From Schaalia meyeri (lineage in GTDB: Bacteria > Actinomycetota > Actinomycetes > Actinomycetales > Actinomycetaceae), in contig NZ_FNLK01000014.1 in the NCBI RefSeq assembly GCF_900105015.1, positions 1-32,000 of the forward strand: 32,000 bases of DNA, given 5' to 3'. Below the pieces are notes generated by a model. That model made no database searches, was not told the origin of the DNA, and was given only the letters and a program-made list of their open reading frames with translations. A program made the position numbers and the translations under genes. Each line of letters opens with the position of its first letter. Position 1 is the first letter of the stretch. Below, in pieces: positions 3,998-26,135 of this stretch.

Positions 3998-4018
3998 GCA
4001 TCGGCGACTAACGCATCG

Positions 4019-4057
4019 CTCCGCGCGGATCCGTCAGGGTCCGCGCGGAGTCTTTTC
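4019..4057 (+). terminator. Intrinsic terminator downstream of eno
   Basis: An 11-bp perfect stem CTCCGCGCGGA (4019-4029) / TCCGCGCGGAG (4040-4050) with a 10-nt loop is followed by TCTTTTC. Confidence 0.75.
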
Positions 4058-4103
4058 GGCGTGGGGATGAGCCAAACGACCAGACTTAGGGCACGATAGA
4101 GGA

Positions 4104-4829
4104 ATGAATGGCCGTCGCTCTTCCTCCCGCCCTTCACCACGTCGCCGTTCCTCTTCGGAGGCGGCGCGTACGACGCGCGAGATCAACGCGGAGAAGTCGC
4201 GTCAGCGCAGGGCGGCCGCACAGGCTTCGAAGCGCGCGACGGGGGAGGGCTCCTCGGCGCGAGGCTCGCGTGACGCGACGTCGGCTGATCGGAAGAAACG
4301 GGGGGCAAGGCGCGGGGCGCTGCGTGCCGAGAAGCGTGTTGGGGGTGAGAGCGCCTCCGTTTTGTCGATCGGTGGGCTGGACATTTCGACGCGCCTGGTC
4401 GTGGTGCTGACAGTTGCCGCCATCCTCGCCGTCATGCTGGTTCCCAGCGTCTACCAGTGGTGGCAGCAGGAACGCGAACTGGCGCAGATCAAAACACAGG
4501 TTGCCGAGCAGCAGGAAAAGAACGCTCAGATGCAGCGCCAGCTGGACCTGTGGAATGATCCCGACTACATCTCTACGCAGGCGCGCGAGCGCCTCGGATA
4601 CGTGCGGCCCGGTGAGACGCAATACACGGTGGTGGATCCGGGGTCGCAATACCAGGACTCCGCGATGGCGTCCGCGGCGACGCCGACTGGACCGGCGCGC
4701 CCCTGGGTGCAGCAGCTCGCTATCCTAGTGGGGAAGGCGGATCAGCCGCCCAACTCGACGCCCGTCCCGTCGGCTGAGAACAGTCAGTCGGGCCAAGCGA
4801 ACACCACCGGCCAAGAAAGCGGAGAATGA
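4104..4829 (+). CDS. Septum formation initiator family protein (FtsB/DivIC-like)
   Basis: Arg-rich N-terminus, one TM helix (LVVVLTVAAILAVMLVPSVY), then a coiled coil ending in LWNDPDYISTQARERLGYVRPGE. It sits in the conserved eno-ftsB-DUF501-ppx order. The exact start is uncertain. Confidence 0.8.
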   Translation: MNGRRSSSRPSPRRRSSSEAARTTREINAEKSRQRRAAAQASKRATGEGSSARGSRDATSADRKKRGARRGALRAEKRVGGESASVLSIGGLDISTRLVVVLTVAAILAVMLVPSVYQWWQQERELAQIKTQVAEQQEKNAQMQRQLDLWNDPDYISTQARERLGYVRPGETQYTVVDPGSQYQDSAMASAATPTGPARPWVQQLAILVGKADQPPNSTPVPSAENSQSGQANTTGQESGE

Positions 4830-5335
4830 GCCTCTCACACATCACCGACGCCAGTGAAGAGGATCTGGAGGTCCTGCGCGCCCAGCTGGGTCGCGTGCCC
4901 CGAGGAGTCGTCGGTATTGCCGCGCGCTGCGTGTGCGGTCGGCCAACGGTGGTTGCCACCGCGCCGCGCCTGCCCGACGGTACGCCGTTCCCGACGACGT
5001 TTTATTTGACTCACCCGGCCGCCGTCAAGGGCGCGTCGACCCTGGAAGCCGAGCACGTCATGGACAGGTTCAACGAGGAGCTTGCCAACGATGCGGAGCT
5101 GCGTGCCGCCTATGAGGGCGCCCACCAGGCCTACATCAAGGCGCGCCTGACGCTGGGCGACGTCCCTGAGATATCCGGGGTGAGCGCGGGGGGAATGCCC
5201 GCGCGCGTCAAGTGCCTGCACGCGCTGGTCGGCCACTCGTTGGCCGCCGGAATCGGAGTCAACCCCATCGGTGATCGTGTTCTCGCGATGCTGGACGAGC
5301 GTGGCCTGTTCTCGCAGGGTCGCTGCTCCTGCTGA
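4826..5335 (+). CDS. DUF501 domain protein
   Basis: The ATGA start/stop overlaps the upstream gene. The product (CVCGRPTVVATAPRLPDGTPFPTTFYLTHP..., VKCLHALVGH) matches the family found between ftsB-like and ppx genes in actinobacteria. Confidence 0.8.
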   Translation: MSLSHITDASEEDLEVLRAQLGRVPRGVVGIAARCVCGRPTVVATAPRLPDGTPFPTTFYLTHPAAVKGASTLEAEHVMDRFNEELANDAELRAAYEGAHQAYIKARLTLGDVPEISGVSAGGMPARVKCLHALVGHSLAAGIGVNPIGDRVLAMLDERGLFSQGRCSC

Positions 5336-5395
5336 GTGCGCCCACCTGAGCCAGCCCCGGCCTGGTCCGGGACAAAACCCACCAGAAACGAAGCG

Positions 5396-6376
5396 ATGAC
5401 ACGCGTAGCTGCAATTGACTGTGGAACAAATTCGATCCGATTGTTGGTCGCCGACGGCAGCGTCGGCGAGGACGGAGCCGTCCGCCTCAGCGACCTCACC
5501 CGCCAGATGCGCATCGTGCGCCTGGGGCAGGGGGTGGACGCGCACGGGTACCTGGATCCCGCGGCGATCGAGCGTACCGTTGAGGCGACCGTCGAATATC
5601 AGCGGATGATCGAGGCGCTGGGTGCGACCCACACCCGCTTCGTGGCGACTTCCGCGACACGCGACGCCTCGAATAGCGCCGAGTTCGTGCGCCAGATTCG
5701 GGCGGTCATTGGTGTCGAACCCGAGGTGGTGGTCGGGACGGAAGAGGCGTCCCTGTCCTTTAATGGCGCGATTTCTGGGCTGGGCGAGTCCGTTTCCGCC
5801 CCCATGCTGGTCGTCGACATAGGGGGTGGATCGACCGAGCTGGTGCTGGGGTCCGCGCGCGTTGAGCAGGCGGTTTCGATCGACATGGGTGCGGTGCGGG
5901 TGACAGAGAAGTTCTTTAGCGGCATCGATCCGACCGTCGGTGTTGACGCTGCTAAACAGGAACGCGCTGTCACGTGGATTGATGAGCAGCTGGACGCGGC
6001 CGAAAAGTCGGTCGATCTGGCGCGCGTGCGATCCCTCGTGGGGGTCGCCGGAACGGTGACCACGCTGACGGCGCAGGCCCTGGGCTTGGCCTCTTACCAG
6101 CCCGAGCTCATTCACGGCGCCCGACTGAGCGCGGCCCAGATCGACGATGCGGTGCGCTTCATGGTCGACCAGCCCACCTCGGTGAAGGCCTCCCTGGGGT
6201 TCATGCCGCAGGGACGCGAAGACGTGATCGCCGCGGGCGCACTCATCTGGGGTCGCATCGTGCGGCGCGTGCTGGATCGGGCAGCCAGCGTGGGGCATCC
6301 CATCGATCAGGTGGTCACCTCCGAGCACGACATTTTGGACGGTATCGCGCTGGCGATGGTCTCGGACGCAGCTTGA
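5396..6376 (+). CDS. ppx: Ppx/GppA family exopolyphosphatase/phosphatase
   Basis: The product begins MTRVAAIDCGTNSIRLLVAD. It also has VDIGGGSTELV, the ASKHA phosphate-binding motifs of Ppx/GppA. ATG 5396 is chosen over the ORF-track start at 5336. Confidence 0.9.
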   Translation: MTRVAAIDCGTNSIRLLVADGSVGEDGAVRLSDLTRQMRIVRLGQGVDAHGYLDPAAIERTVEATVEYQRMIEALGATHTRFVATSATRDASNSAEFVRQIRAVIGVEPEVVVGTEEASLSFNGAISGLGESVSAPMLVVDIGGGSTELVLGSARVEQAVSIDMGAVRVTEKFFSGIDPTVGVDAAKQERAVTWIDEQLDAAEKSVDLARVRSLVGVAGTVTTLTAQALGLASYQPELIHGARLSAAQIDDAVRFMVDQPTSVKASLGFMPQGREDVIAAGALIWGRIVRRVLDRAASVGHPIDQVVTSEHDILDGIALAMVSDAA

Positions 6377-6416
6377 GCTGCGCGCCCGCCTCCCGTAGGC
6401 TGGATGTGCGCGGTGC

Positions 6417-6490
6417 GCCCCCGTGGCCCAATTGGCAGAGGCAACCGACTTAAAATCGGTGTGTTGTGGGTTCGAGTCCCACCGGGGGTA
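6417..6490 (+). tRNA. tRNA with anticodon UAA (tRNA-Leu-like; class-I shape by hand folding)
   Basis: Cloverleaf: acceptor GCCCCCG/CGGGGGT; D arm GCCC-AATTGGCAG-AGGC; anticodon stem ACCGA/TCGGT with loop CTTAAAA; variable GTGTT; T arm GTGGG-TTCGAGT-CCCAC; discriminator A. No CCA is encoded. Confidence 0.8.
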
Positions 6491-6648
6491 CTGATCCACG
6501 CTCTCATCAACGAGTCCGGGGACGCGTCCGCTTTCGTTGCGCGCCCCGGGTGGATTGTCCTTTCAGCCGCGCGCATAACACTACGTTTCCTACACGGGGT
6601 TGCCTCGTGCGACACTAGAGATAGCACATCACTGATCAAGGAGGAAAA

Positions 6649-7635
6649 ATGGCCAACCCGGTGATGAACTCGATCGTGAAGGACTGGTCGACCCAGTCCA
6701 CGACTCCCGCCGGCTATCCGACGATGCCCGGGTATCAGCCCGCGTCCCAGCAGGCTCAGAATCCTTACGGTGGTGCGGCAAACCCCTACGGGACAGAGCA
6801 GGCAGGATACGCGGGCGCAGATCGCGGACCCGTCTACGGGGTGCCGCAGGGAGCTCCCGCGGGCTATCCCGCACCGGCCGGGTACGACGATTCGATGGCC
6901 TCGTACGAGGCGATGATGAACGCCCCCGCCGCCGACTCCGTGGACCGCGGGATCATGACCTACGACGATGTCGTGGTCAAGTCGCTCATCTGCTTCACCC
7001 TGCTCCTCGTTGGCGCGACCGTCGGTTGGGCAACCGGCACGATTGCGCTGGGCGCGGCCATGCTCATCATGTTCGCCTCGCTCGTGGTGACCCTGGGCCT
7101 CGCCCTCTTTATCCAGTTCTCGAAGAAGGTACGTCCCGGCCTGATCGTCGTCTACTCGCTTCTGGAGGGTTTCGTCCTCGGCGTGGTGTCCTTCGCTTTC
7201 GAGTCGTTGTATCCCGGTATCGTCGTGACCGCGGTCATCGCGACCCTCGTCGTCATCGGCGTGACCCTGCTGGCATTCACCATGGGATTCGTGCGAAACT
7301 CCCCAACCCTGGCCCGCATCGCAGGCATCGGTTCCCTCGCGTTCTTCATCTACTACGCCGTCACCTTCGCGCTGTCGCTGACCGGTGTGGTTAACATGGT
7401 GGCCGTCAACAACACCAAGATCTGGGGTATCCCGTTGGGCGTCATCATCGGCGTGGTCGCGGTGTTCATCGGCGTGGTGTGCCTGGTGCGCGACTTCGAT
7501 GCTGTCAAGGTCGGCGTCTCCTACGGCGTGCCCGCACGCTTCTCCTGGCTGTGCACGTTCGCGATCATGACCGACGTGATCTGGATCTACCTGGAGATCC
7601 TCAAGATCCTGTCCTACTTTATGCGTCGCGACTGA
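6649..7635 (+). CDS. Bax inhibitor-1/YccA family membrane protein with P/Q/G/Y-rich N-terminal tail
   Basis: AAGGAGGA RBS precedes the ATG. A ~95-aa low-complexity N-terminus is followed by about seven hydrophobic helices, and the C-terminus is DVIWIYLEILKILSYF, typical of the BI-1 family. Confidence 0.85.
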   Translation: MANPVMNSIVKDWSTQSTTPAGYPTMPGYQPASQQAQNPYGGAANPYGTEQAGYAGADRGPVYGVPQGAPAGYPAPAGYDDSMASYEAMMNAPAADSVDRGIMTYDDVVVKSLICFTLLLVGATVGWATGTIALGAAMLIMFASLVVTLGLALFIQFSKKVRPGLIVVYSLLEGFVLGVVSFAFESLYPGIVVTAVIATLVVIGVTLLAFTMGFVRNSPTLARIAGIGSLAFFIYYAVTFALSLTGVVNMVAVNNTKIWGIPLGVIIGVVAVFIGVVCLVRDFDAVKVGVSYGVPARFSWLCTFAIMTDVIWIYLEILKILSYFMRRD

Positions 7636-16711: not shown

Positions 16712-17812
16712 GTGTCTCTCACTATCGGTATCGCCGGACTGCCCAACGTCGGCAAGTCCACCCTGTTTAACGCCCTGACCCGCGCGAGTGTGCTCGCCGC
16801 GAACTATCCCTTTGCGACCATCGAGCCCAACGTCGGCGTGGTCCCCCTGCCGGACCCGCGCCTGGATAAGCTCGCGGAGATCTTTGGCTCCCAGCGCATC
16901 CTCCCGGCCACCGTGTCCTTCGTGGACATCGCCGGCATCGTGCGCGGCGCCTCCGAGGGCGAGGGCTTGGGCAACCAGTTCCTGGCAAATATCCGCGAGG
17001 CCGACGCGATCTGTCAGGTCACGCGCGCCTTCAACGACCCCGACGTGGTGCACGTGGACGGCAAGGTGGACCCGGCTTCGGACATCGAGACCATCAAGGC
17101 TGAGCTGATCCTGGCCGACATGCAGACCATCGAGAAACAGATCCCGCGCCTGGAGAAGGAGGTGCGCGGTAAGAAAACCGAGCCGGTCGTGCTGGAGACC
17201 GCGCGTGCGGCCATGGAGCTGCTGGAGCGCGGCGAGCTGCTGTCCGGCCCCGAGGGCGCCAAGCTGGACCAGGACGCGCTGCGGTCCTTCCAGCTGATGA
17301 CCTCCAAGCCCTTTATTTTCGTGTTCAACATGGACGCCGCCGAGATGGATGACCAGGAGAAGCAGGACGAGCTGCGCGCCCTGGTGGCCCCCGCCGAGGC
17401 GATCTTCCTGGACGCCCAGTTCGAGGCCGAGCTGGTCGAGCTGGACGAGGCGGACGCCCGCGAGATGCTGGCCGAGTCCGGGCAGGCCGAGTCCGGCCTG
17501 GACAAGCTGGCGCGAGTCGGCTTTGACACGCTGGGCCTGCAGACCTACCTCACCGCCGGCGAGAAGGAGGCGCGCGCCTGGACGATCCACAAGGGCGACA
17601 CCGCCCCCAAGGCCGCCGGCGTCATCCACACGGACTTCGAGAAGGGTTTCATCAAGGCCGAGATCGTCTCCTACGACGACCTGGTCTCCCTGGGCTCCAT
17701 CGCCGAGGCGCGCGCCCACGGCCGGGTCCGCATGGAGGGCAAGGACTACGTCATGCAGGACGGGGACGTGGTGGAGTTCCGGTCGGGGCTCGAGTCCGGG
17801 GGGAAGAAGTGA
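16712..17812 (+). CDS. ychF: Redox-regulated ATPase YchF, with a non-canonical C-terminal tail
   Basis: The product begins MSLTIGIAGLPNVGKSTLFNALT and contains DIAGIVRGASEGEGLGNQFL and a TGS-like C-terminal domain. It ends ...DGDVVEFR-SGLESGGKK instead of the conserved ...FRFNV. Confidence 0.95.
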   Translation: MSLTIGIAGLPNVGKSTLFNALTRASVLAANYPFATIEPNVGVVPLPDPRLDKLAEIFGSQRILPATVSFVDIAGIVRGASEGEGLGNQFLANIREADAICQVTRAFNDPDVVHVDGKVDPASDIETIKAELILADMQTIEKQIPRLEKEVRGKKTEPVVLETARAAMELLERGELLSGPEGAKLDQDALRSFQLMTSKPFIFVFNMDAAEMDDQEKQDELRALVAPAEAIFLDAQFEAELVELDEADAREMLAESGQAESGLDKLARVGFDTLGLQTYLTAGEKEARAWTIHKGDTAPKAAGVIHTDFEKGFIKAEIVSYDDLVSLGSIAEARAHGRVRMEGKDYVMQDGDVVEFRSGLESGGKK

Positions 17813-20439
17813 GCGCGGCTGTGGCAGGGCAGCGTAAGGATGATGTGCATCCCATCCTCAACGAGGATGGGAAGTACATCTGCCTCACCGATGGAACGCT
17901 CTTGCCCTCTACACCGGAAGAAACCGTCCGGCAGGGGTTCATCGCGGTTTTGATAAACGAGTATGGGTATCCAGCCAACCGCATTCGTCGCGAGGTCCCG
18001 ATTTACCATGGCAGCAGCGAGATTAGAGACAGAGCGGGCAAGCCAGTTCGAGCAGACATTGTTGTTTACGCAAGTTCCACGGCTGCCGCTCGACGCGACC
18101 AAGGCCAGATCAAGTTTGTCGTTGAGTGTAAGAAGCCCGATGCTAAGTCTGGATATGAGCAACTCGTAAGCTACATATTCTCGACCAATGCGCCTGGTGG
18201 TGTCTGGACGAACGGTGTTGACGGGGATGAGTCTGACACGAAATTCTATCGAGTTGATAGGGAGCTCGCACAACTCCTTCCCGTTACTGAACTTCCGCGA
18301 GTGGATGAAAAATGGGGGTCGATCAATCGACGAAAGAAAACGGACCTTGAGAAGCCTCATGATGTTCGTCGTCTGTTCCGCCTATGTAACAGTAAGCTCT
18401 ACGGTCGTGGCATGGAGAACTTCGATTACGACATCACCATGGATATGGTGAGGATTCTCCTTGCGAAAATTGAGGATGAGTCAGCTCCTGGTGATTATCC
18501 TGCCTTCTATATCTCACAGGATGAGTATGAAAATCCGGAGGGTCGGGAGGCTGCTGCCCAACGCGTCCGTTCTCTTTTCGAGGCTTTTGCTGAGCGACAT
18601 CGAGAAGTGTTTCCGGAAGGGGAGAGGATTGAGGTCCCCGATTCAGCCATTGTTGAAGCGGTCACGGTTCTCCAACCCTGGTCGCTCGTTGTCGGTTATC
18701 AGGATGCAGATGAATGGGATGTCATGGGTGCTGCCTATGAGCAGTACACTCATCAAAACCTGAAGCGTCAACGCGGGCAGTTCTTCACTAACCGTCTAAT
18801 TGTCTCGGCAATGGTCCAGATGGCTGATCCGCAGGTAGGGGAAAAAGTTCTCGATCCAGCCGGTGGGTCCGGGGGGTTCGTAACTTCGGCTTTTCGGTAT
18901 ATGCGGCAATCGATCCTTGCGACAACTGCTCCGGGTAGTCCGCAGCGTGAACGTCAACTCGATCAGGCGAAGAATGACATTTTTCTATCGGAAATTAGTC
19001 CGAGGCTTGTCAAGCTTGCGAAGACTGCGATGCTGTTGAACGGCGACGGACACGCGGGAATGACAAAGGCGAACTCGCTTGGTCCATACGAGAAGTTGGA
19101 CCCGTGGATTCAGTCGCGCTGCGCTCGGGGTGTCCCGAAGGTGATCCTGTCGAATCCGCCGTTTGCAGGGCAGGGCGAATCGCGTATCGCTGATCCGCAG
19201 ATTCTCGCGGACTACGAGACTGCTTATCGTACGGTGGTATCTAAGGCGACGGGAGAGCTCGTACAGGAGTTGATGCAGCAGCAAAGTCCTGAACTGCTGT
19301 TCTTTGAGCGGTGTCTCGATTGGCTAGCCGAGGGTGGTCGCATGGGTATCGTGTTACCAAAGGCTTTCTTGGATACCGCGCAGGCTCACCGCGCTCGGGA
19401 GATGCTCTTCGAACGGGCGTACCTTGACGGCGTCGTCACCTTACATAAGGATTCCTTTCAGCCAGATACAGGGGTGCGTACCTGTATGGTATTTCTTACC
19501 AAAAAGACGGAGCGGCAGAGGCAGCTTCCAGAGGGTGATTACGATATCTTCATGGCAGTGTCTCAGAAGGTCGGGCAAACGTCGGAGGGGGAGCCGATCT
19601 TTGTGGTAGGCGATGACGGGCGACCTACTGCTGAAATCGACCATGATCTCGACGAGATAGTTCATGACTTCAAAGCGCTGCGGTCTGGCAGTCTAGTTGC
19701 TTCACAGTTCCGCTATGCGGTCAAGCGAAGTGATATCGACAACCGGCTTAATATCAACCCGCAGTTTTACTCACCTCATCTGAACGAGTCGATAGCCACG
19801 GTGCGTCGATTCGACGAACTTGACGGTTGGTCGGTTACCACTCTTGGTCAGCTCGAAAAGGGGATTGCGGTCTTCAAAGGCCCCCGTCTTAAGACCGAGA
19901 ATGTGATTGTTTCAGACTTGTCGTCCGGCACTGATGTTGTTGGCTACTTCACGCCCTCTGCCATGCTTCAGGATAAACGAGATTCGGCAAAGTTGATTGA
20001 TCTTGCGAAGGCGACCAACAAACAGTTGCGCGACTTTGAAATCGTCACTGTTCGCGAGGGGGATTTGCTTCTTACGCGTTCAGGTTCAATCGGTCGACTT
20101 GCTTATGTCTCTAGCGTGATGGAGGGGCAGATCGTTTCGGATGATATGATTCGTGTAAGGGTTCCATCCGAGGAGATTCGGGCGTATGTCGCCGCTTTCT
20201 TGTTGTCTGAGAACGCGATGGCGCAGATGTTGATGAATGAGTATGGATCGGTTCAACAACACCTCGAACCGGGCCATGTGCGAGATCTTCTTATCCCTGT
20301 ACCGCGGAACTGGTTGGATGCGGCTAAGTTAATTGCGAGTGGTAAGGAGTTTATAGAATCGAAGGAAGCTTCGGATCGTGCTATGCAGGCGCTCCGTACC
20401 CGCGGATTCGATCGGGGCATGACTGAGCTGCTCGGGTGA
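17809..20439 (+). CDS. Single-chain Type IIG restriction-modification enzyme (PD-(D/E)xK nuclease + N6-adenine methyltransferase + one HsdS-like target-recognition domain)
   Basis: An HsdR_N-type nuclease motif has D83 (18055-18057) and E106-C-K108 (FVVECKK, 18124-18132). The SAM motif LDPAGGSGGF is at 18850-18879, and motif IV NPPF is at 19153-19164. A TRD-like C-terminus starts near W674 (19828): WSVTTLGQLEKG...LLTRSGSIGRLAYV. The GTG start overlaps the ychF stop as GTGA. G+C is ~52%. Confidence 0.85.
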   Translation: MSAAVAGQRKDDVHPILNEDGKYICLTDGTLLPSTPEETVRQGFIAVLINEYGYPANRIRREVPIYHGSSEIRDRAGKPVRADIVVYASSTAAARRDQGQIKFVVECKKPDAKSGYEQLVSYIFSTNAPGGVWTNGVDGDESDTKFYRVDRELAQLLPVTELPRVDEKWGSINRRKKTDLEKPHDVRRLFRLCNSKLYGRGMENFDYDITMDMVRILLAKIEDESAPGDYPAFYISQDEYENPEGREAAAQRVRSLFEAFAERHREVFPEGERIEVPDSAIVEAVTVLQPWSLVVGYQDADEWDVMGAAYEQYTHQNLKRQRGQFFTNRLIVSAMVQMADPQVGEKVLDPAGGSGGFVTSAFRYMRQSILATTAPGSPQRERQLDQAKNDIFLSEISPRLVKLAKTAMLLNGDGHAGMTKANSLGPYEKLDPWIQSRCARGVPKVILSNPPFAGQGESRIADPQILADYETAYRTVVSKATGELVQELMQQQSPELLFFERCLDWLAEGGRMGIVLPKAFLDTAQAHRAREMLFERAYLDGVVTLHKDSFQPDTGVRTCMVFLTKKTERQRQLPEGDYDIFMAVSQKVGQTSEGEPIFVVGDDGRPTAEIDHDLDEIVHDFKALRSGSLVASQFRYAVKRSDIDNRLNINPQFYSPHLNESIATVRRFDELDGWSVTTLGQLEKGIAVFKGPRLKTENVIVSDLSSGTDVVGYFTPSAMLQDKRDSAKLIDLAKATNKQLRDFEIVTVREGDLLLTRSGSIGRLAYVSSVMEGQIVSDDMIRVRVPSEEIRAYVAAFLLSENAMAQMLMNEYGSVQQHLEPGHVRDLLIPVPRNWLDAAKLIASGKEFIESKEASDRAMQALRTRGFDRGMTELLG

Positions 20440-20592
20440 AAGGGGTGATCGGTCCGCAGTGAACTGCTGGGACCTCGTGGTCCGATTTGCCTGGACTTGT
20501 CGCCCTTCCGAACGTCTGTTGAAGACTGCTCTCTCGGGCCGCTCCTCGAGATTTTCGTGTGTCATCTGCGCGAAGAGTGGATATCCTGGTGA

Positions 20593-20835
20593 GATGAATC
20601 GACAGAAGGTATTATTCCTCGAGGAAAGATATACCGTGGGTGTGCAGGAAGGTCGCTCTTTGTTTCGGCAGTTAAGGCACGCGAACGTTTGACGTGTGAA
20701 ACCCGGGTTACTATTGGCACAGGATTGTGTAAGGAGTATGTGACTGGTGCTAGCATTCGCGAGATTGGGTGTTAGCCCGGGTACTCCATTGCGTGTGTTC
20801 GCAGTCTTCTAAATGGTGCGGGGACGGGGTTTTGA
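20593..20835 (+). pseudogene. Decayed helix-turn-helix gene remnant (recombinase or regulator C-terminus?) with an in-frame TAG
   Basis: One frame reads ...RERLTCETRVTIGTGLCKEYVTGASIREIGC*PGYSIACVRSLLNGAGTGF*. The pattern Y..G.SIREI...G.S...VR.LL..G is HTH-like. The TAG lies at 20773-20775. There is no start codon or RBS. Confidence 0.3.
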
Positions 20836-20894
20836 GAGCCAGGTAAACACTCAGGGAGGGTGAGTTCTTGACTCTCATGTGTAAGATGCCCTCC

Positions 20895-20918
20895 GTCGAA
20901 TTCAGGTTCAACGTCTGA
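20895..20918 (+). pseudogene. ychF: Displaced relic of the native ychF 3' end (codons VEFRFNV-stop)
   Basis: gtc gaa ttc agg ttc aac gtc tga translates to V E F R F N V stop, the conserved YchF C-terminus. Its first 12 nt match ychF 17771-17782 (gtggagttccgg) at 9 of 12 positions. Confidence 0.7.
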
Positions 20919-21062
20919 TCGTTCTTGAACGCGGCGGCGGCCGGGTCGCGCGAGGGCGTGGCCCGGCTTTCCTGTTGGGAGTGTAGCTCGCGAAGCGGAG
21001 TCGCATCACAATGCGAATCAAATGATGGTGCTGGTGATGTTATGCTGGTGGTGGAGGTAAAC

Positions 21063-21257
21063 ATGAGAACGACTGTGACACTCGATGATGACCTGCTCGC
21101 CCGCGCTGAGGAGCTCACTGGGATCAGAGAGCGCTCCGTTTTGATCAGAGACGCGGTTGAGCTCCTCGTCCGTATCGAGAGCGGCCGTCAGTTAGCTGCG
21201 CTCGGCGGTAGTGATCCAGGAGCGGAGGCTGCGCCGCGGAGCCGGGCGCGCGCATGA
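21063..21257 (+). CDS. vapB: Type II antitoxin, VapB family
   Basis: GGAGGT RBS precedes ATG 21063. The 64-aa product begins MRTTVTLDDDLLARAEELTG...RSVLIRDAVELLV. Its stop overlaps the vapC start as ATGA. Confidence 0.8.
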   Translation: MRTTVTLDDDLLARAEELTGIRERSVLIRDAVELLVRIESGRQLAALGGSDPGAEAAPRSRARA

Positions 21258-21625
21258 GAATCCTCGTTGACACGAACGTGTGGATCGACCACCTGCGCAC
21301 AACCGAGCCAGTCCTGGTCGATCTGCTCGAACGTGATCAGGTGTGCGTGCACCAGAGCGTCATCACTGAGCTGGCATTGGGCAACCTGAAAGACCGGTCG
21401 ATCTTCCTGAAGGCGTTAGAACGCTTGATGATAGTGCGTAACGTGGATGATCAGGGGGTGCGCTATTTTATCCAGGAGCGGCGGCTGTGGGGTAGGGGGC
21501 TGAGTGCTGTCGATGCGGCAATTCTGGCGAGCGTTGTTGTAACCCCTGGCATGTCACTGTGGACACGCGACAAGCGCCTGCGTCAGGCCGCGCGCGACGC
21601 GGGTGTGCTCGCGGACCTCGACTAA
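21254..21625 (+). CDS. vapC: PIN-domain ribonuclease toxin VapC
   Basis: The product begins MRILVDTNVWIDHL (first acidic residue) and contains ITELALG, SAVDAAILAS and LWTRDKRL, which supply the PIN acidic quartet. Confidence 0.85.
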   Translation: MRILVDTNVWIDHLRTTEPVLVDLLERDQVCVHQSVITELALGNLKDRSIFLKALERLMIVRNVDDQGVRYFIQERRLWGRGLSAVDAAILASVVVTPGMSLWTRDKRLRQAARDAGVLADLD

Positions 21626-21748
21626 GGGGCGTGGAGGCCGGGTCGTGAGAAGTCGCGCCCCCTCCTTGCCGCTGGTGTTGGGATGGTGGAAGCTTCGAGC
21701 AAGTGCACCCTGGGTGTGTGACTGGTCGCCCGGGTGTAGGGTGTGGCC

Positions 21749-23917
21749 ATGACGACGGATAGCCAGTACTCATGGACCAGCTTTTACATGGAGTTCGCCG
21801 ACAAACTGCTCGCCTTCAAGGACGACAGGCAGGCGTTGATCGCGGCGCTGCAGAAGGTGTACGAGGACATCGGTATGACGCTGCCGACGCTCGATGCCTC
21901 CGGCACGCCGACGGACATCGACCCCTTCACCGTCTTCGGCCTCTTCAACCGAGGCCTCGCCGAGCGCAAACGCCGAGCAATCGCAACGGGCATCGGCACC
22001 GCCCTCGGCGTCAACTCGCCCCTGACGGATGACTTCGCCGGCGTCCCGGTTCTCCTCAACATCAACGCGACCTTCTACGACCAGGCCAGCCGCGACGAAG
22101 CAGACATAGAGCGACTGTGGAACGTCTTCAGTGCCGCGCTGGCATACGCGGACCAGCCGACCGCCCCCGCCCGCGCGGCCTTCGCATCCGCCTACGACAC
22201 GGTCCTGCGCCAGCGCCGCGTCGGTTGGAACATCACGATGGGCCTCTTCTGGATCCGCCCCCTCACCTACCTCAACCTGTGCTCGCGCGACCGCTGGTGC
22301 CTCGCCCTACCCAACACGATGCCCAGCGACATTCGGGCCACCGTCGAATCCCTCCGAGACGCCCCGCCGGCCGCCGATTACCTGCAGCTGCGCGACCGCG
22401 TCCGCTCAGCCATGGACAGCGGCGACTACGAATACAAGACCTTCGCGGACCTTTCCGCGTACGCGTGGCGGGTCTCCGAAGAGGTCAACCAACGGAACAA
22501 ACGGACAGACAAAGAGAAAGAGACAGCAGTGCAGTCCGCCGCCCTCGGTGACGCGGACGTCCAGACCACGCGCTACTGGCTCTACGCGCCCGGCGAGGGC
22601 GCGCGCATGTGGGAGGATTTCTACGAGCGCGGCGTCATGGGCCTGGGCTGGGCCGAGCTGGGCGACTTGAGCGCCTACGCCTCCAAGGAGGACATGCGCC
22701 AGCGCCTGCTCGAGATCCGCACCGACAACACGTCCCAGACCAACTCGGCCCGCGCCGTCTGGCAGTTCGCCAACGAGATTAAACCCGGCGACGTTATCTT
22801 CGTGAAGAAGGGACGCTCCGAGATCCTCGGGCGCGGCGTCGTCACGGGCGACTACGTTTACGACCCGAACGGCGGGCACTACCCGCACATCCGCGAGGTT
22901 CGCTGGACCCACGCGGGACACTGGAGCCTCGACAAGCCCCTCGCCATGAAGACGCTCACCGAGGTCACCGACTACCCGGAGTTCGTGGCCACAGTCGAGG
23001 CATTCTTCGAGGACGCCGAGGAGGAGGCCTCAGGCACCGAGGAACCCGCAGTTTCCTACCCCGAGTACACGAAGGAGGACTTCCTCGACGAGGTCTACAT
23101 GGACGAAGCGCAATACGACGCCCTCGTGGGAGTGCTGCGCGCCAAGAAGAACATTATCTTGCAGGGCGCGCCCGGCGTGGGCAAGACCTACGCCGCCAAG
23201 CGCCTCGCCTACTCGATGATGGGCGTCAAGGATGCCTCGCGCGTCATGATGGTCCAGTTCCACCAGAGCTACTCCTATGAGGACTTCATCGAGGGCTACC
23301 GGCCCTGCACCACAGGCTTCGAGCTGGTCAGGGGCGCCTTCTACTCGTTTTGCAAGAAGGCGTCCGAGGACGAGGATAACGACTATTTCTTCATCATCGA
23401 CGAGATCAACCGCGGCAACCTTTCCACGATCTTCGGTGAGCTCTTCATGCTCATCGAAAGCGATAAGCGGGGGAGCAAGCTGCAGCTCCTCTACTCCCGC
23501 GAGCTGTTCCACGTGCCCTCCAACGTCTTTCTCGTCGGCATGATGAACACCGCCGACCGGAGCCTCGCGATGCTCGACTACGCGCTGCGGCGCCGCTTCG
23601 CCTTCGTTGAGTTGCGCCCGGCCTTCGACTCGGAGAGATTTGCCGAGTACCGCGCCTCGCTGGAGGACCCGCGCTTCGACGTGCTGGTGCGCGCGGTCGC
23701 GCGCCTCAACGAGGCCATCGCCGCCGACGATTCCCTCGGCGAGGGCTTTCGCATCGGTCACAGCTACTTCTGCAACATGGACGCCGACGAGTGCGACCAC
23801 GCGGCGCTCTCCTCGATCGTGGAGTACGAGCTGGTCCCGATGCTCAGGGAATACTGGTTCGACGAGCCCGCCAAGGTCGAGGAGTGGGCGCGGAAGTTGC
23901 GCGGGGCGCTGCGGTGA
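21749..23917 (+). CDS. mcrB: McrB-family AAA+ GTPase with a ~450-aa N-terminal extension (helical domain plus PUA/EVE-like candidate reader domain)
   Basis: Walker A GAPGVGKT is at 23165-23188 and Walker B FFIIDEINR at 23387-23413. The McrB signature MNTADRS has NTAD at 23546-23557, followed by ALRRRF. The start is ATG 21749 or GTG 21743. Confidence 0.85.
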   Translation: MTTDSQYSWTSFYMEFADKLLAFKDDRQALIAALQKVYEDIGMTLPTLDASGTPTDIDPFTVFGLFNRGLAERKRRAIATGIGTALGVNSPLTDDFAGVPVLLNINATFYDQASRDEADIERLWNVFSAALAYADQPTAPARAAFASAYDTVLRQRRVGWNITMGLFWIRPLTYLNLCSRDRWCLALPNTMPSDIRATVESLRDAPPAADYLQLRDRVRSAMDSGDYEYKTFADLSAYAWRVSEEVNQRNKRTDKEKETAVQSAALGDADVQTTRYWLYAPGEGARMWEDFYERGVMGLGWAELGDLSAYASKEDMRQRLLEIRTDNTSQTNSARAVWQFANEIKPGDVIFVKKGRSEILGRGVVTGDYVYDPNGGHYPHIREVRWTHAGHWSLDKPLAMKTLTEVTDYPEFVATVEAFFEDAEEEASGTEEPAVSYPEYTKEDFLDEVYMDEAQYDALVGVLRAKKNIILQGAPGVGKTYAAKRLAYSMMGVKDASRVMMVQFHQSYSYEDFIEGYRPCTTGFELVRGAFYSFCKKASEDEDNDYFFIIDEINRGNLSTIFGELFMLIESDKRGSKLQLLYSRELFHVPSNVFLVGMMNTADRSLAMLDYALRRRFAFVELRPAFDSERFAEYRASLEDPRFDVLVRAVARLNEAIAADDSLGEGFRIGHSYFCNMDADECDHAALSSIVEYELVPMLREYWFDEPAKVEEWARKLRGALR

Positions 23918-24954
23918 TCCGCGTCCGAAACCTCTACCACATGCTCGCCTACGCCTTCTCGGTGCTGACCGAGCAGGGCTACCGCGCCGTGGCCACCGAA
24001 GACTTCGACAACGCCGCAGAGCTGTGCGCCGCCATCCTTGAGCGGGGCGTCTCGCTCCAGCTCAAACGAGGCCTCGGGCAAGAGTACGTGGGCCGCACCG
24101 AGGCCCGATCCTCCCTGCGCGGGAAAGTAGAGGTCACCGAGTCCGTGAAGTCCCAGGCTCTCTTGCGTCGCCAGATGGTGTGTTCCTACGACGAGTTCTC
24201 GGCAGACACGACAATGAACCGCATCATCAAAGCGACGGTCGCCCTGCTCGTGCGCGCGGACATCTCCACGGCCCGCAAGAAGAGCCTGAAGAAGCTGATG
24301 ATCTTCTTCGCCAACGTGGGTGAGATCGACCTGCACACGGTCGACTGGAACATGCGCTTCGACCGCAACAACCGCACGTACCGCATGCTCATGGCGGTAT
24401 GCTGGCTCGTCGTCAAGGGACTGCTGCAAACCCAGAGTGATGGACGCGTACGTATGATGGACTTCTTCGACGAGCAGCGCATGTGCCGCTTGTACGAGAA
24501 GTTCATTCTCGAATACTACCGCAAGGAACACCCTCGCCTCCGCGCCAGCGCATCCTTCATCGACTGGGCGCTGGACGATGGGGCCTCGGACGGCCTGCCC
24601 GCCATGCGCAGCGACGTGACGCTCACGCGGGGCGGCCGGGTGCTGATCATCGATGCAAAGTACTACGAGCGTGCGATGCAACAGAACTTCGACAAGAGGA
24701 CCGTGCATTCGGGGAACCTGTACCAGATCTTCGCCTACGTGAAGAACAAACAAGCCGAGCTGGAGCGCGCGGGGGAGAGCGCCGAGGTCTCGGGCGTGCT
24801 CCTCTACGCCGCCACCGACCAGGAGATTCAACCCGACTTCGCCTACCGCATGAGCGGCAACCGCGTCAGTGCGATGACCCTCGACCTGGACCAGCCCTTC
24901 GCGGCGATCCGCGCCCGGCTCGACGCGATTGTCGAGGAGTATCTTCCGGCATGA
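23914..24954 (+). CDS. mcrC: McrC-family PD-(D/E)xK nuclease subunit
   Basis: GTG 23914 overlaps the mcrB stop as GTGA. The product begins VIRVRNLYHMLAYAF. The nuclease motif comprises D (24613-24615, MRSDVTL) and IIDAKYY, with D-A-K at 24652-24660. Confidence 0.8.
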   Translation: MIRVRNLYHMLAYAFSVLTEQGYRAVATEDFDNAAELCAAILERGVSLQLKRGLGQEYVGRTEARSSLRGKVEVTESVKSQALLRRQMVCSYDEFSADTTMNRIIKATVALLVRADISTARKKSLKKLMIFFANVGEIDLHTVDWNMRFDRNNRTYRMLMAVCWLVVKGLLQTQSDGRVRMMDFFDEQRMCRLYEKFILEYYRKEHPRLRASASFIDWALDDGASDGLPAMRSDVTLTRGGRVLIIDAKYYERAMQQNFDKRTVHSGNLYQIFAYVKNKQAELERAGESAEVSGVLLYAATDQEIQPDFAYRMSGNRVSAMTLDLDQPFAAIRARLDAIVEEYLPA

Positions 24955-25072
24955 GGCCGCCGCTCGGCCGGAGGGGCCTTCTACCGCTGATACCGCTGAG
25001 AAGAGGCGGGGGAGGCGTGCGCAACTTCTGTCGTGTTAACGCCTGGCGTCAATAACGCGCCTCGTCATATCA

Positions 25073-25200
25073 CGTGGGTACGATTCAATCGTTTGGTGAT
25101 CGTCAGACTGAGCGGTTGTTTGCAAGGGAGGCCGCGGCCTCCCTTCGACCCGCGCATCGCGCGCGTTGCACTGCGCGCTGTTCACCGTGCGAGTGAGTGA
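25073..25200 (+). pseudogene. higB: HigB-like (RelE/ParE superfamily, killer-protein type) toxin gene relic, frameshifted and truncated
   Basis: One frame gives VGTIQSFGDRQTERLFARE. The +1 frame continues GRPRPPFDPRIARVALRAVHRASE-stop. Together these resemble the HigB N-terminus (I.SF...TE.LF.G.....F..I.RVALRKL..L). There is no antitoxin gene and no C-terminal half. Confidence 0.45.
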
Positions 25201-25262
25201 GTTTGCGGGGGCTTGGGCGTCGTACGGCGCGAGCCAGCGAATCTGAACGTCGGATGCCGCCT

Positions 25263-26135
25263 CTACGCCACCACCATCGCCACAGTGCCTGCGCATATGA
25301 CGGCCAGGCCGACCAGGTAGCGCCGCGTGAAACGCTCGTGAAACGCCAGCGCCGAAAAACCGACGGTCACCAGGATCGATAGCTTGTCGATGGGAACGAC
25401 GATGGACGCGGGCCCACCCTTCAGCGCGTGATAGTACACCAGCCACGACGCGCAGGTCGCCGCGCCCGACGCGATGATGAAAGCCAGCTCCCGTGTTGGA
25501 ATCAATCGCACCTCGGACGTGCGTCCCTGGGCGGCCACGATGCCCCACGCCATCGCCAGCACCACGAGCGTCCGCACGGCCGTCCCCAATGTCGGATCCA
25601 CTCCGGAAACGCCGACCTTCCCCAGGATGGATGTCAGCGCCGCAAAGAATGCCGAGGCGAGGGCATAGATCAGCCAGCTCCCGCCCTGACGCAGCGCGCG
25701 CGGTAGCCCAGACAGGTCGGTCGGCTCGACCATCAGGAGAGTTCCTGCCGTGATTGCGATGATCCCGAGCATGCCCCACGCGCTCACCGCTTCACCCAAG
25801 AGGACCAGGGCCAGGAGGATAGTCAGGACCGTCGAGAGCTTGTCGATGGGTGCCACCCGGGAAACGTCGCCCCGGGACAGTGCCGCGAAGTAACACAGCC
25901 ACGACGCCCCTGTCGCCAGCCCAGACAGGAGGAGGAAGAGCAGCGAGCGCGCGTCGATAGCGAAAACGTCGGTCGCCGAACCGGCCAGAGCAGCCATGCC
26001 CCACGCCCCTGCGGCCACGACGACCGTGCGCAGGGCCGTCGCCACTGACGAGGCCGTGGTCGCGACCCCGGCCTTTGCCAGGACGGACGTTACCCCCGCG
26101 AAAAGAGCTGATAGACAGGCGAAGAGGATCCACAT
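25263..26135 (-). CDS. EamA/DMT-superfamily transporter
   Basis: The 290-aa product has about ten TM helices in two internally similar halves (e.g. ...RVAPIDKLSTVLTILLALVLLGE... and ...IVVPIDKLSILVTVGFSALAFHE...). Confidence 0.85.
   Translation of the reverse strand: MWILFACLSALFAGVTSVLAKAGVATTASSVATALRTVVVAAGAWGMAALAGSATDVFAIDARSLLFLLLSGLATGASWLCYFAALSRGDVSRVAPIDKLSTVLTILLALVLLGEAVSAWGMLGIIAITAGTLLMVEPTDLSGLPRALRQGGSWLIYALASAFFAALTSILGKVGVSGVDPTLGTAVRTLVVLAMAWGIVAAQGRTSEVRLIPTRELAFIIASGAATCASWLVYYHALKGGPASIVVPIDKLSILVTVGFSALAFHERFTRRYLVGLAVICAGTVAMVVA

Follow-up and report, generated by a model that had tools for sequence, protein, structure and literature searches.

A McrBC restriction system of Schaalia meyeri with a predicted EVE/YTH-like domain and a helical DUF8425 domain in place of the Escherichia coli McrB head

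The window analysed here, a 32,000-nucleotide stretch of the Schaalia meyeri assembly GCF_900105015.1 (contig NZ_FNLK01000014.1, positions 1 to 32,000), contains the two adjacent genes mcrB and mcrC (Table 1). We consider it likely that they form a McrBC restriction system in which the 5-methylcytosine (5mC) head of the Escherichia coli enzyme is replaced by a modified-base reader of predicted EVE/YTH-like fold and by a helical domain acting as a second recognition module. These two modules correspond to the Pfam families DUF8426 and DUF8425, respectively. The locus is an ordinary member of a widespread class of McrBC systems: since Pfam already lists its architecture and hundreds of species have it, it is typical rather than unusual.

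According to the protein sequences, both the McrB GTPase and the McrC nuclease are intact and closely resemble their E. coli counterparts. McrB carries the motifs GAPGVGKT (Walker A, residue 473), DEINR (Walker B, 551), MNTADRS (599), and RRRF (614); it matches the Pfam family AAA_5 (1.9e-20), and its residues 405-719 match E. coli McrB in the PDB entries 7vsr and 6ut6 (5e-87). McrC matches the Pfam family McrBC (PF10117, 1.3e-33, residues 6-283) and the NCBIfam equivalog of E. coli McrC (NF007277, 400 bits for a cut-off of 338, residues 1-343), with D234 and D247-A-K249 as nuclease motif. The stop codon of mcrB and the start codon of mcrC share the four nucleotides GTGA at 23914, an overlap also present in the gene calls of homologous loci. 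The original prediction, made from the DNA sequence, had recognised the four McrB motifs, the McrC partner with its D...DAK signature, and the GTGA overlap, all of which are confirmed here. The locus shows three features of canonical two-gene McrBC systems, a McrB-type AAA+ protein with the signature loop, a co-directional adjacent McrC, and a fused N-terminal extension. It shares with EcoKMcrBC (PDB 6ut6, 7vsr, 6hz4) the two-gene operon, the N-linker and GTPase, the GxxGxGKT, DEINR, MNTADRS, and RRRF motifs, and the D...D-A-K motif of McrC, and its GTPase is nearer to that of E. coli than to that of Thermococcus gammatolerans McrB (about 1e-40). The mcrB stop codon is TGA, and an in-frame GTG lies two codons upstream of the ATG at 21749, at 21743; close homologues begin with MTTDSQYSW, in agreement with the ATG as start.

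Table 1. Coordinates of the mcrBC genes, of the parts of McrB, and of neighbouring features in the window.
Feature	Position	Strand	Description
ychF	16712-17812		gene directly before the McrBC island
HSDR_N_2 + N6_Mtase + target-recognition-domain fusion	17809-20439	+	876 aa, one polypeptide
VapB	21063-21257		RHH antitoxin; likely start ATG 21063 after GGAGG, 64 aa as in homologues
VapC	21254-21625		PIN toxin; VapBC pair directly upstream of McrBC
mcrB	21749-23917	+	722-aa GTPase subunit; order DUF8425, DUF8426, AAA+ motor, lid
mcrB domain 1 (residues 1-266)	21749-22546	+	all-alpha (predicted); corresponds to Pfam DUF8425
mcrB domain 2 (residues ~275-428)	22571-23032	+	predicted EVE/YTH-like PUA-superfamily barrel; corresponds to DUF8426
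mcrB linker (residues 429-445), EDAEEEASGTEEPAVSY	23033-23083	+	acidic, flexible; pLDDT (model confidence, see text) 65-69; isoelectric point 4.05
mcrB N-linker, AAA+ GTPase, lid (residues 446-722)	23084-23914	+	close to E. coli McrB
mcrC	23914-24954	+	346-aa PD-(D/E)xK nuclease partner; GTG start
Perfect 22-nt GC-rich palindrome AAGGGAGGCCGCGGCCTCCCTT	25124-25145		read directly from the sequence
EamA transporter gene	25263-26135	-	convergent; follows the McrBC island

The resemblance to E. coli McrB stops at the motor. The NCBIfam model of the 5-methylcytosine-specific subunit McrB (NF008457) scores 297 bits, below its cut-off of 637, and the match is confined to residues 435-719 of the protein and positions 162-457 of the profile. 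The S. meyeri McrB has no Pfam match to MrcB_N/DUF3578, the 5mC-binding domain of the E. coli protein, which agrees with the earlier remark that its N-terminus does not resemble the E. coli N-domain. The head of about 160 aa in EcoKMcrBC is absent and around 445 aa made of DUF8425 and DUF8426 stand in its place. Given the partial match to NF008457 and the lack of a MrcB_N match, the label "5-methylcytosine-specific" is not justified for this McrB, and because the MrcB_N head is replaced, specificity for 5mC or 5-hydroxymethylcytosine (5hmC) cannot be assumed. Searches of residues 1-450 against NCBIfam, a local copy of Pfam, and the sequences of the PDB, with residues 1-270 and 271-450 searched separately, gave no significant match. 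The sole trace in the Pfam search was PUA at an E-value of 0.13, with no match to EVE. Profiles built from the family alignments of the two N-terminal domains had no significant match in the PDB either.

The N-terminal region nevertheless belongs to a large family. A search among 1.84 billion representatives at 50% identity identified 5,692 clusters at E ≤0.001, and 880 at ≤1e-30; in 90% clusters there were 4,001 scored matches. The closest relatives are in oral Actinomycetaceae, namely Schaalia sp. HMT-877, Actinomyces, and Pauljensenia. Homologues that are 62-95% identical over the N-terminal 450 aa all carry precomputed assignments to PF28527 and PF28530, and the full-length ones also to PF28529; PF07728 is among the assigned domains as well. 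Gene tables name the first three families DUF8425 (PF28527), DUF8426 (PF28530), and McrB_lid (PF28529). Since PF28527 and PF28530 come from a Pfam release newer than our local copy, membership was read from the homologues rather than scored directly, and we found no record of the exact S. meyeri protein; on the basis of sequence similarity, its membership in both families is near certain. Homologues truncated at the C-terminus lose PF28529 only, and N-terminal fragments retain PF28527 and PF28530. From the domains kept and lost in these truncated proteins we assign DUF8425 to the first domain and DUF8426 to the second. Pfam lists both without an assigned function, and literature searches for DUF8425, DUF8426, and PF28527-30 retrieved no papers.

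The presumed reader is the second domain. We modelled it with AlphaFold2 from an alignment of 78 DUF8426 sequences, 28-89% identical to the S. meyeri protein, and obtained a predicted local distance difference test score (pLDDT) of 90.4 and a predicted template modelling score (pTM) of 0.79. The model has the order beta-alpha-beta-alpha-alpha-beta-beta-beta-beta followed by a C-terminal helix, with strands (E) and helices (H) at E6-9, H18-24, E26-29, H43-53, H61-73, E79-84, E88-95, E110-123, and E133-135, in agreement with the element order described for EVE domains by Bell et al. (PMC7641849). Foldseek identified 38 matches in the PDB at E ≤0.001, and EVE and YTH domains account for nearly all of the 50 best matches listed (probability 0.99-1.00). 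The former include PH1033 (1wmm, 2hd9), MJECL36 (2p5d), and Atu2648 (1zce), and the latter YTHDF1, YTHDF2, YTHDF3, YTHDC2, MRB1, and Mmi1, with E-values from 5e-5 to 1e-3 for the EVE proteins and many of the YTH domains. None of these 50 is an ASCH, SRA, or classical PUA structure. The original prediction had proposed AlphaFold and Foldseek for both N-terminal parts, which it placed at residues ~1-265 and ~285-430, close to the modelled boundaries, and it had likened the second to a PUA-superfamily barrel of EVE/ASCH type; the superfamily and the EVE likeness hold, and the ASCH likeness found no counterpart in the matches listed.

In the second domain, the motifs RYWLYAPGE, KPGDVIFVKKG, and EILGRGVVTG occur in the same order as their counterparts YWLxKSEP, GDxxxFYHSN, and IVGxAEV in the EVE structures 2ar1 and 2gbs. 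Two tryptophans, W277 and W386, are invariant, and W288, W338, F340, and Y369 are conserved in at least 92% of the family. Faint Pfam matches are scattered among the 78 members, to PUA in 8 and to EVE in 3 (best 0.0017). The predicted structure thus supports a PUA-superfamily barrel on the EVE/YTH side, which by sequence falls outside Pfam EVE, PUA, and YTH and forms the separate family DUF8426.

We presume that this barrel reads modified bases, in part from its fusions. DUF8426 matches the N-terminal half of the PADLOC candidate system PDC-S02 (8e-18), a Proteus plasmid protein of 330 aa where it is joined to Mrr_cat (2.7e-25), and a Vibrio plasmid protein of 265 aa where it is joined to HNH (1.9e-15). 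It is inserted inside the AAA+ domain in McrBs of Klebsiella plasmids, and follows an E. coli-type MrcB_N domain in a Roseomonas McrB. Type IV readers are expected to show this pattern, a single sensor family combined with many nucleases, which argues for a modification reader. COG4127/PDC-S02 (an N-terminal domain plus Mrr_cat) and the reader-HNH proteins share this N-terminal domain with the S. meyeri McrB, but have a fused Mrr or HNH effector and lack DUF8425, whereas the S. meyeri system has a GTPase motor and a separate McrC. The N-terminal domain of COG4127 was described in 2005 as structurally unassigned (PMC1189080). Regarding the inserted form, the McrB-like ATPase of a Klebsiella grimontii plasmid (L091, 2981-5137) has the barrel at residues 325-490, past the Walker A region, and is followed by a McrC family gene. 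The same protein is found on many Klebsiella, E. coli, and Raoultella plasmids, and this form is widespread on conjugative enterobacterial plasmids.

Replacement of the E. coli head by a reader of the PUA superfamily has precedents. The McrB of T. gammatolerans has a YTH-like N-domain and that of Staphylothermus marinus a PUA/EVE-like one (PMC7641849, PMC12707154); such YTH and EVE heads have already been characterised (PMC12707154), and, among EVE fusions, EVE-McrB is reportedly the most common (PMC7641849). In contrast with these heads, the barrel of the S. meyeri protein belongs to a sequence family of its own and is not recognised by the EVE and PUA models, and the additional helical domain of 266 aa was not detected in the E. 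coli or T. gammatolerans (6ut5) McrB matches. The EVE-HNH enzyme VcaM4I (PDB 6yex) follows the same design of an EVE-type barrel sensor joined to a nuclease module and is reported to restrict 5hmC/5mC DNA (PMC7897488; design also in PMC12707154). However, it has another effector and no detectable sequence homology to the second domain, and the 50 Foldseek matches listed do not include 6yex.

Many EVE and YTH domains bind RNA, and most of the YTH domains matched by Foldseek are readers of N6-methyladenine (m6A) in RNA. The barrel could accordingly recognise modified RNA or a free modified nucleotide instead of phage DNA. RNA targeting has been proposed for one branch of McrBC, CoCoNuT (PMC11090510), and a preprint on the PUA-domain defence system PUA-Cal-HAD reports binding of m6-dAMP (bioRxiv 10.64898/2026.01.15.699771). 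We nevertheless regard such a target as very improbable: the motor and nuclease group with EcoKMcrBC, a DNA enzyme, and not with the CoCoNuT branch; coiled coils, cold-shock domains, and HEPN domains are all absent from the S. meyeri McrB and McrC; and binding of N6-methyladenine (6mA) in DNA has been reported for the YTH domain of T. gammatolerans McrB (PMC7641849).

The first domain is of a different kind. Its AlphaFold2 model (pLDDT 95.9, pTM 0.92) consists of 11 helices and no other elements, as had been anticipated for residues ~1-265, and the final helix (232-266) forms a long charged connector. Foldseek found no structural relative of the model, with a best E-value of 1.3 in the PDB (TM-score <0.2) and of 0.79 in BFVD. 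Neither AlkD-like HEAT glycosylases nor the sulfur-binding domain of ScoMcrA appeared in these two lists. As modelled, the domain has no relative among solved structures or predicted viral ones, and we do not claim it as a new fold. Across an alignment of 64 diverse DUF8425 sequences, 27-97% identical to the S. meyeri protein, P59 and W124 are invariant and conservation is concentrated in the blocks DIDPFTVFGLFNKG, IPVLxN..ATFY, DIDxLWxLFEAA, and LTMGLFWIRP..F.NLDSxNR. When each of the 64 was compared with Pfam at E ≤1, there were scattered single matches and no consistent family. A candidate direct fusion of reader and nuclease, P0195, combines DUF8425 with the C-terminal half of McrC; it was rejected as a probable deletion chimera because its tail closely matches the tail of the S. 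meyeri McrC.

The original prediction had also called for the phylogenetic distribution of the N-terminal architecture, which turns out to be broad. A pattern scan of GTDB, with one genome per species and a 9-sequence alignment as source, gave at least 561 confirmed species genomes. The 80 best of these loci span Actinomycetota, Bacillota, Akkermansia, Spirochaetia, Succinimonas, Muribaculaceae, Chloroflexota, and the archaeon Methanocorpusculum, and 64 of the 80 have the three-part order found in S. meyeri. Of these 64 proteins, 33 have fewer than 790 aa (for the most part 720-790, as in S. meyeri) and 31 have at least 790 aa; in one of the longer class (L018, 828 aa), a Mrr_N winged helix sits between DUF8425 and DUF8426. 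DUF8425 shares an open reading frame with the McrB GTPase in 72 of the 80, with McrC next in 63 of these 72, and is joined to the GTPase alone in 6, for example in L072, where a protein of 547 aa is followed by McrC. About half of the loci pair DUF8425 with the DNA-binding Mrr_N winged helix.

We also mapped the three modules with local phmmer onto the 150 best representatives of the sequence search. The order DUF8425-DUF8426-GTPase is found in 71, and 29 others, mostly on cut contigs, have DUF8425-DUF8426. DUF8425 is present in two or three copies in 9 proteins, with the GTPase in all but one, and precedes the GTPase directly in 11 (the GTPase being matched as one or two segments). DUF8426 precedes the GTPase in two or four tandem copies in 4 proteins and as a single module in 5, and is inserted in the GTPase, as in the Klebsiella plasmid proteins, in 5. 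DUF8425 is almost confined to McrB, while DUF8426 also occurs in fusions with Mrr and HNH nucleases. All plasmid matches to DUF8425 that were found lie inside a McrB-like ATPase or, in Deinococcus radiodurans MP1 (L092), next to one. There, the DUF8425-like match (4001-4474) begins around 275 bp upstream of the start of a coding sequence annotated as "McrB family protein" (4277-6886); the annotation may place the start too far downstream, or the gene may be disrupted in its 5' part.

These distributions bear on what DUF8425 does. We favour a target-recognition module because the domain is essentially specific to McrB, is at times the sole N-terminal domain, occurs in tandem copies, and is joined with DNA-binding modules. 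The Roseomonas McrB was counted in the same sense, as the residues that precede DUF8426 (1-484) hold the known 5mC reader MrcB_N at 272-453. Taken on its own, however, any role for DUF8425 follows from domain-architecture logic and is put forward tentatively. It might instead be a regulatory, assembly, or sensor domain, e.g., one that inhibits the motor until the target is bound, tethers hexamers, or senses a phage protein or small molecule, leaving DUF8426 as the sole specificity module. The confinement of DUF8425 to McrB-like ATPases, when DUF8426 is also found on Mrr and HNH nucleases, would fit such a function, as would an acidic domain whose model resembles no known DNA-binding fold and whose few conserved polar residues (D58, N67, R68, R75) suit a small-ligand site as well as DNA. 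Yet the McrBs with an adjacent McrC in which DUF8425 is the sole N-terminal domain (L071, L072, L081) would have no targeting module unless DUF8425 supplies one, which argues against a purely regulatory part, and specificity modules behave as it does, being duplicated in tandem and shuffled with Mrr_N and EVE-type domains. We therefore see the regulatory alternative as rather unlikely. A further version of the recognition hypothesis, that DUF8425 is a structurally new all-alpha nucleic-acid reader for a DNA feature different from that of DUF8426, making the system a dual-reader McrBC, is likewise doubtful at present. If it were true, the feature could be another base modification, a backbone modification, a sequence, or a shape, and this class of McrBC would need, or accept, two different marks.

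By analogy with the E. coli enzyme, the S. meyeri McrB would form hexameric GTPase rings in which McrC is inserted, stimulates GTP hydrolysis, and supplies the PD-(D/E)xK nuclease, and DNA would be cut following translocation from recognised sites. Ring assembly, stimulation by McrC, translocation, and cleavage are taken from work on the E. coli and T. gammatolerans systems (PMC7680126, PMC6344862). The choice of target would lie in the N-terminal 445 residues, with two modules on flexible charged or acidic linkers. DUF8426 would most likely bind a flipped-out modified base in a pocket formed by W277, W288, W338, F340, Y369, and W386, a proposal drawn from the predicted fold and the fusion pattern, and DUF8425 would most likely be a second, independent module for recognition of DNA or of the target. 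We infer the dependence on GTP, the flipping of the base, and the use of DNA rather than RNA as target.

Several observations weigh against this reading. The Foldseek TM-scores of the second domain against the PDB are modest (0.34-0.55), its sequence remains below the Pfam thresholds of EVE (PF01878), PUA, and YTH, and hhalign of the DUF8426 profile with a single EVE sequence (from P0136) aligned 26 columns with a probability of 8%. Both N-terminal domains are acidic (family median isoelectric point about 5.3) and therefore unlike generic binders of the DNA backbone; net charge and isoelectric point did not separate DNA-binding from other roles for either domain. The DUF8425 of S. meyeri, like that of its Actinomycetaceae relatives, also departs from the family at two conserved positions, which in S. 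meyeri lie within the local sequence NLCSRDRWC: residue 178 is Cys where 91% of the family is acidic (NLDS), and residue 184 is Cys where 81% is aromatic. Finally, our literature search found no binding, cleavage, or phage assay for any McrB bearing DUF8425 or DUF8426. The two changed positions lie at 22280-22300 of the window, and Actinomyces relatives have Ser at 178. The changes could reflect an altered ligand preference in the Actinomycetaceae clade, or the residues could be dispensable.

The McrBC genes lie in a variable island between ychF and a convergent EamA transporter gene, which in S. meyeri comprises three units: a methyltransferase fusion, VapBC, and McrBC. In the same ychF-proximal slot, Schaalia HMT-877 has an ApeA-HEPN gene followed by VapBC and McrBC, and an Actinomyces sp. 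has HEPN, SLATT, and SMODS genes (CBASS-like), a HTH gene, and McrBC. The region just 3' of ychF is thus a defence hot spot in Actinomycetaceae (loci L001-L006), and the only constant part of the island across related loci is the McrB-McrC pair. In one of them (L004), a 31-aa C-terminal fragment of YchF is kept after McrC, which suggests insertion into the 3' end of ychF; no such remnant was found downstream of mcrC in the window.

The island of S. meyeri also encodes, on the same strand and about 1.3 kb upstream, a large fusion protein with a HSDR_N_2 domain (PD-(D/E)xK-type, D...ECK), a gamma-class N6-adenine methyltransferase (NPPF), and one HsdS-like target-recognition domain, for which the best PADLOC models are MTase_II, MTase_I, and mad2. 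From its sequence, it resembles a fused Type IIG or Type I-like enzyme that combines restriction, modification, and specificity parts and is self-contained. Its presence raises the question of whether the locus works like LlaJI and LlaI, cutting specific sites in unmodified DNA with the host protected by the neighbouring methyltransferase, and McrBC branches associated with methyltransferases have been reported (PMC11090510). LlaJI, LlaI, and BsuMI share a McrB-like NTPase and a McrC-like nuclease with the S. meyeri system, but consist of three genes with a separate B3-type R1 binder, act site-specifically on unmodified DNA, depend on cognate methyltransferases, and lack specificity for GTP (bioRxiv 10.64898/2026.08.31.748284, PMC12707154). 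In S. meyeri, motor and readers form one polypeptide, the MNTADRS loop has its canonical form, and there is neither a B3 domain nor a separate R1 gene. The methyltransferase protein has its own nuclease and target-recognition domains, its GC content (0.52-0.54) differs from that of its surroundings (0.63-0.67), suggesting a probably recent acquisition, and it is not conserved with McrBC in related loci. As the McrB-McrC pair alone is constant across these loci, we view the methyltransferase as an independent neighbour rather than a partner, which argues against a LlaJI-like mechanism blocked by modification; of the alternatives considered, this one seems to us the most remote. The coexistence of the methyltransferase with McrBC weakly suggests that the readers spare the 6mA pattern of that enzyme.

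Other features of the island can be noted. The VapBC pair that precedes McrBC in S. meyeri also precedes it in Schaalia HMT-877 and is near McrBC in Pauljensenia, and an unrelated Phd/VapC pair precedes the McrBC of a Roseomonas plasmid. There may be a recurrent linkage between toxin-antitoxin pairs and McrBC, or mere clustering in defence islands. The stretch of around 600 bp between the fusion gene and vapB (20440-21062) has no convincing gene, only overlapping spurious open reading frames and a terminator-like hairpin (20532-20551), and could be the junction of two separately acquired segments of the island. A consensus scan of 20400-25400 found no promoters, and terminators at chance level. 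The palindrome of Table 1 lies within the 308 bp that separate mcrC from the convergent EamA gene and was missed by the terminator scan because it lacks a T-run; it is possibly a bidirectional terminator of that kind.

Few Type IV restriction systems are as common as McrBC, whose N-terminal heads decide which phage DNA modifications can be attacked. Characterised McrB heads are, to our knowledge, of few types, namely the SRA-like MrcB_N, YTH, one EVE-like domain, and B3. Hundreds of gut, oral, and environmental species have the DUF8425-DUF8426 head, among them members of Actinomyces, Bifidobacterium, Collinsella, Lachnospiraceae, Akkermansia, and Methanocorpusculum. Automatic annotation names such genes "5-methylcytosine-specific", a label that the evidence presented here does not support. 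The S. meyeri locus is typical of its class. Knowledge of the ligands of DUF8425 and DUF8426 would help to account for phage host range and for barriers to transformation among organisms of the microbiome, and could also yield a new reagent for binding modified bases.

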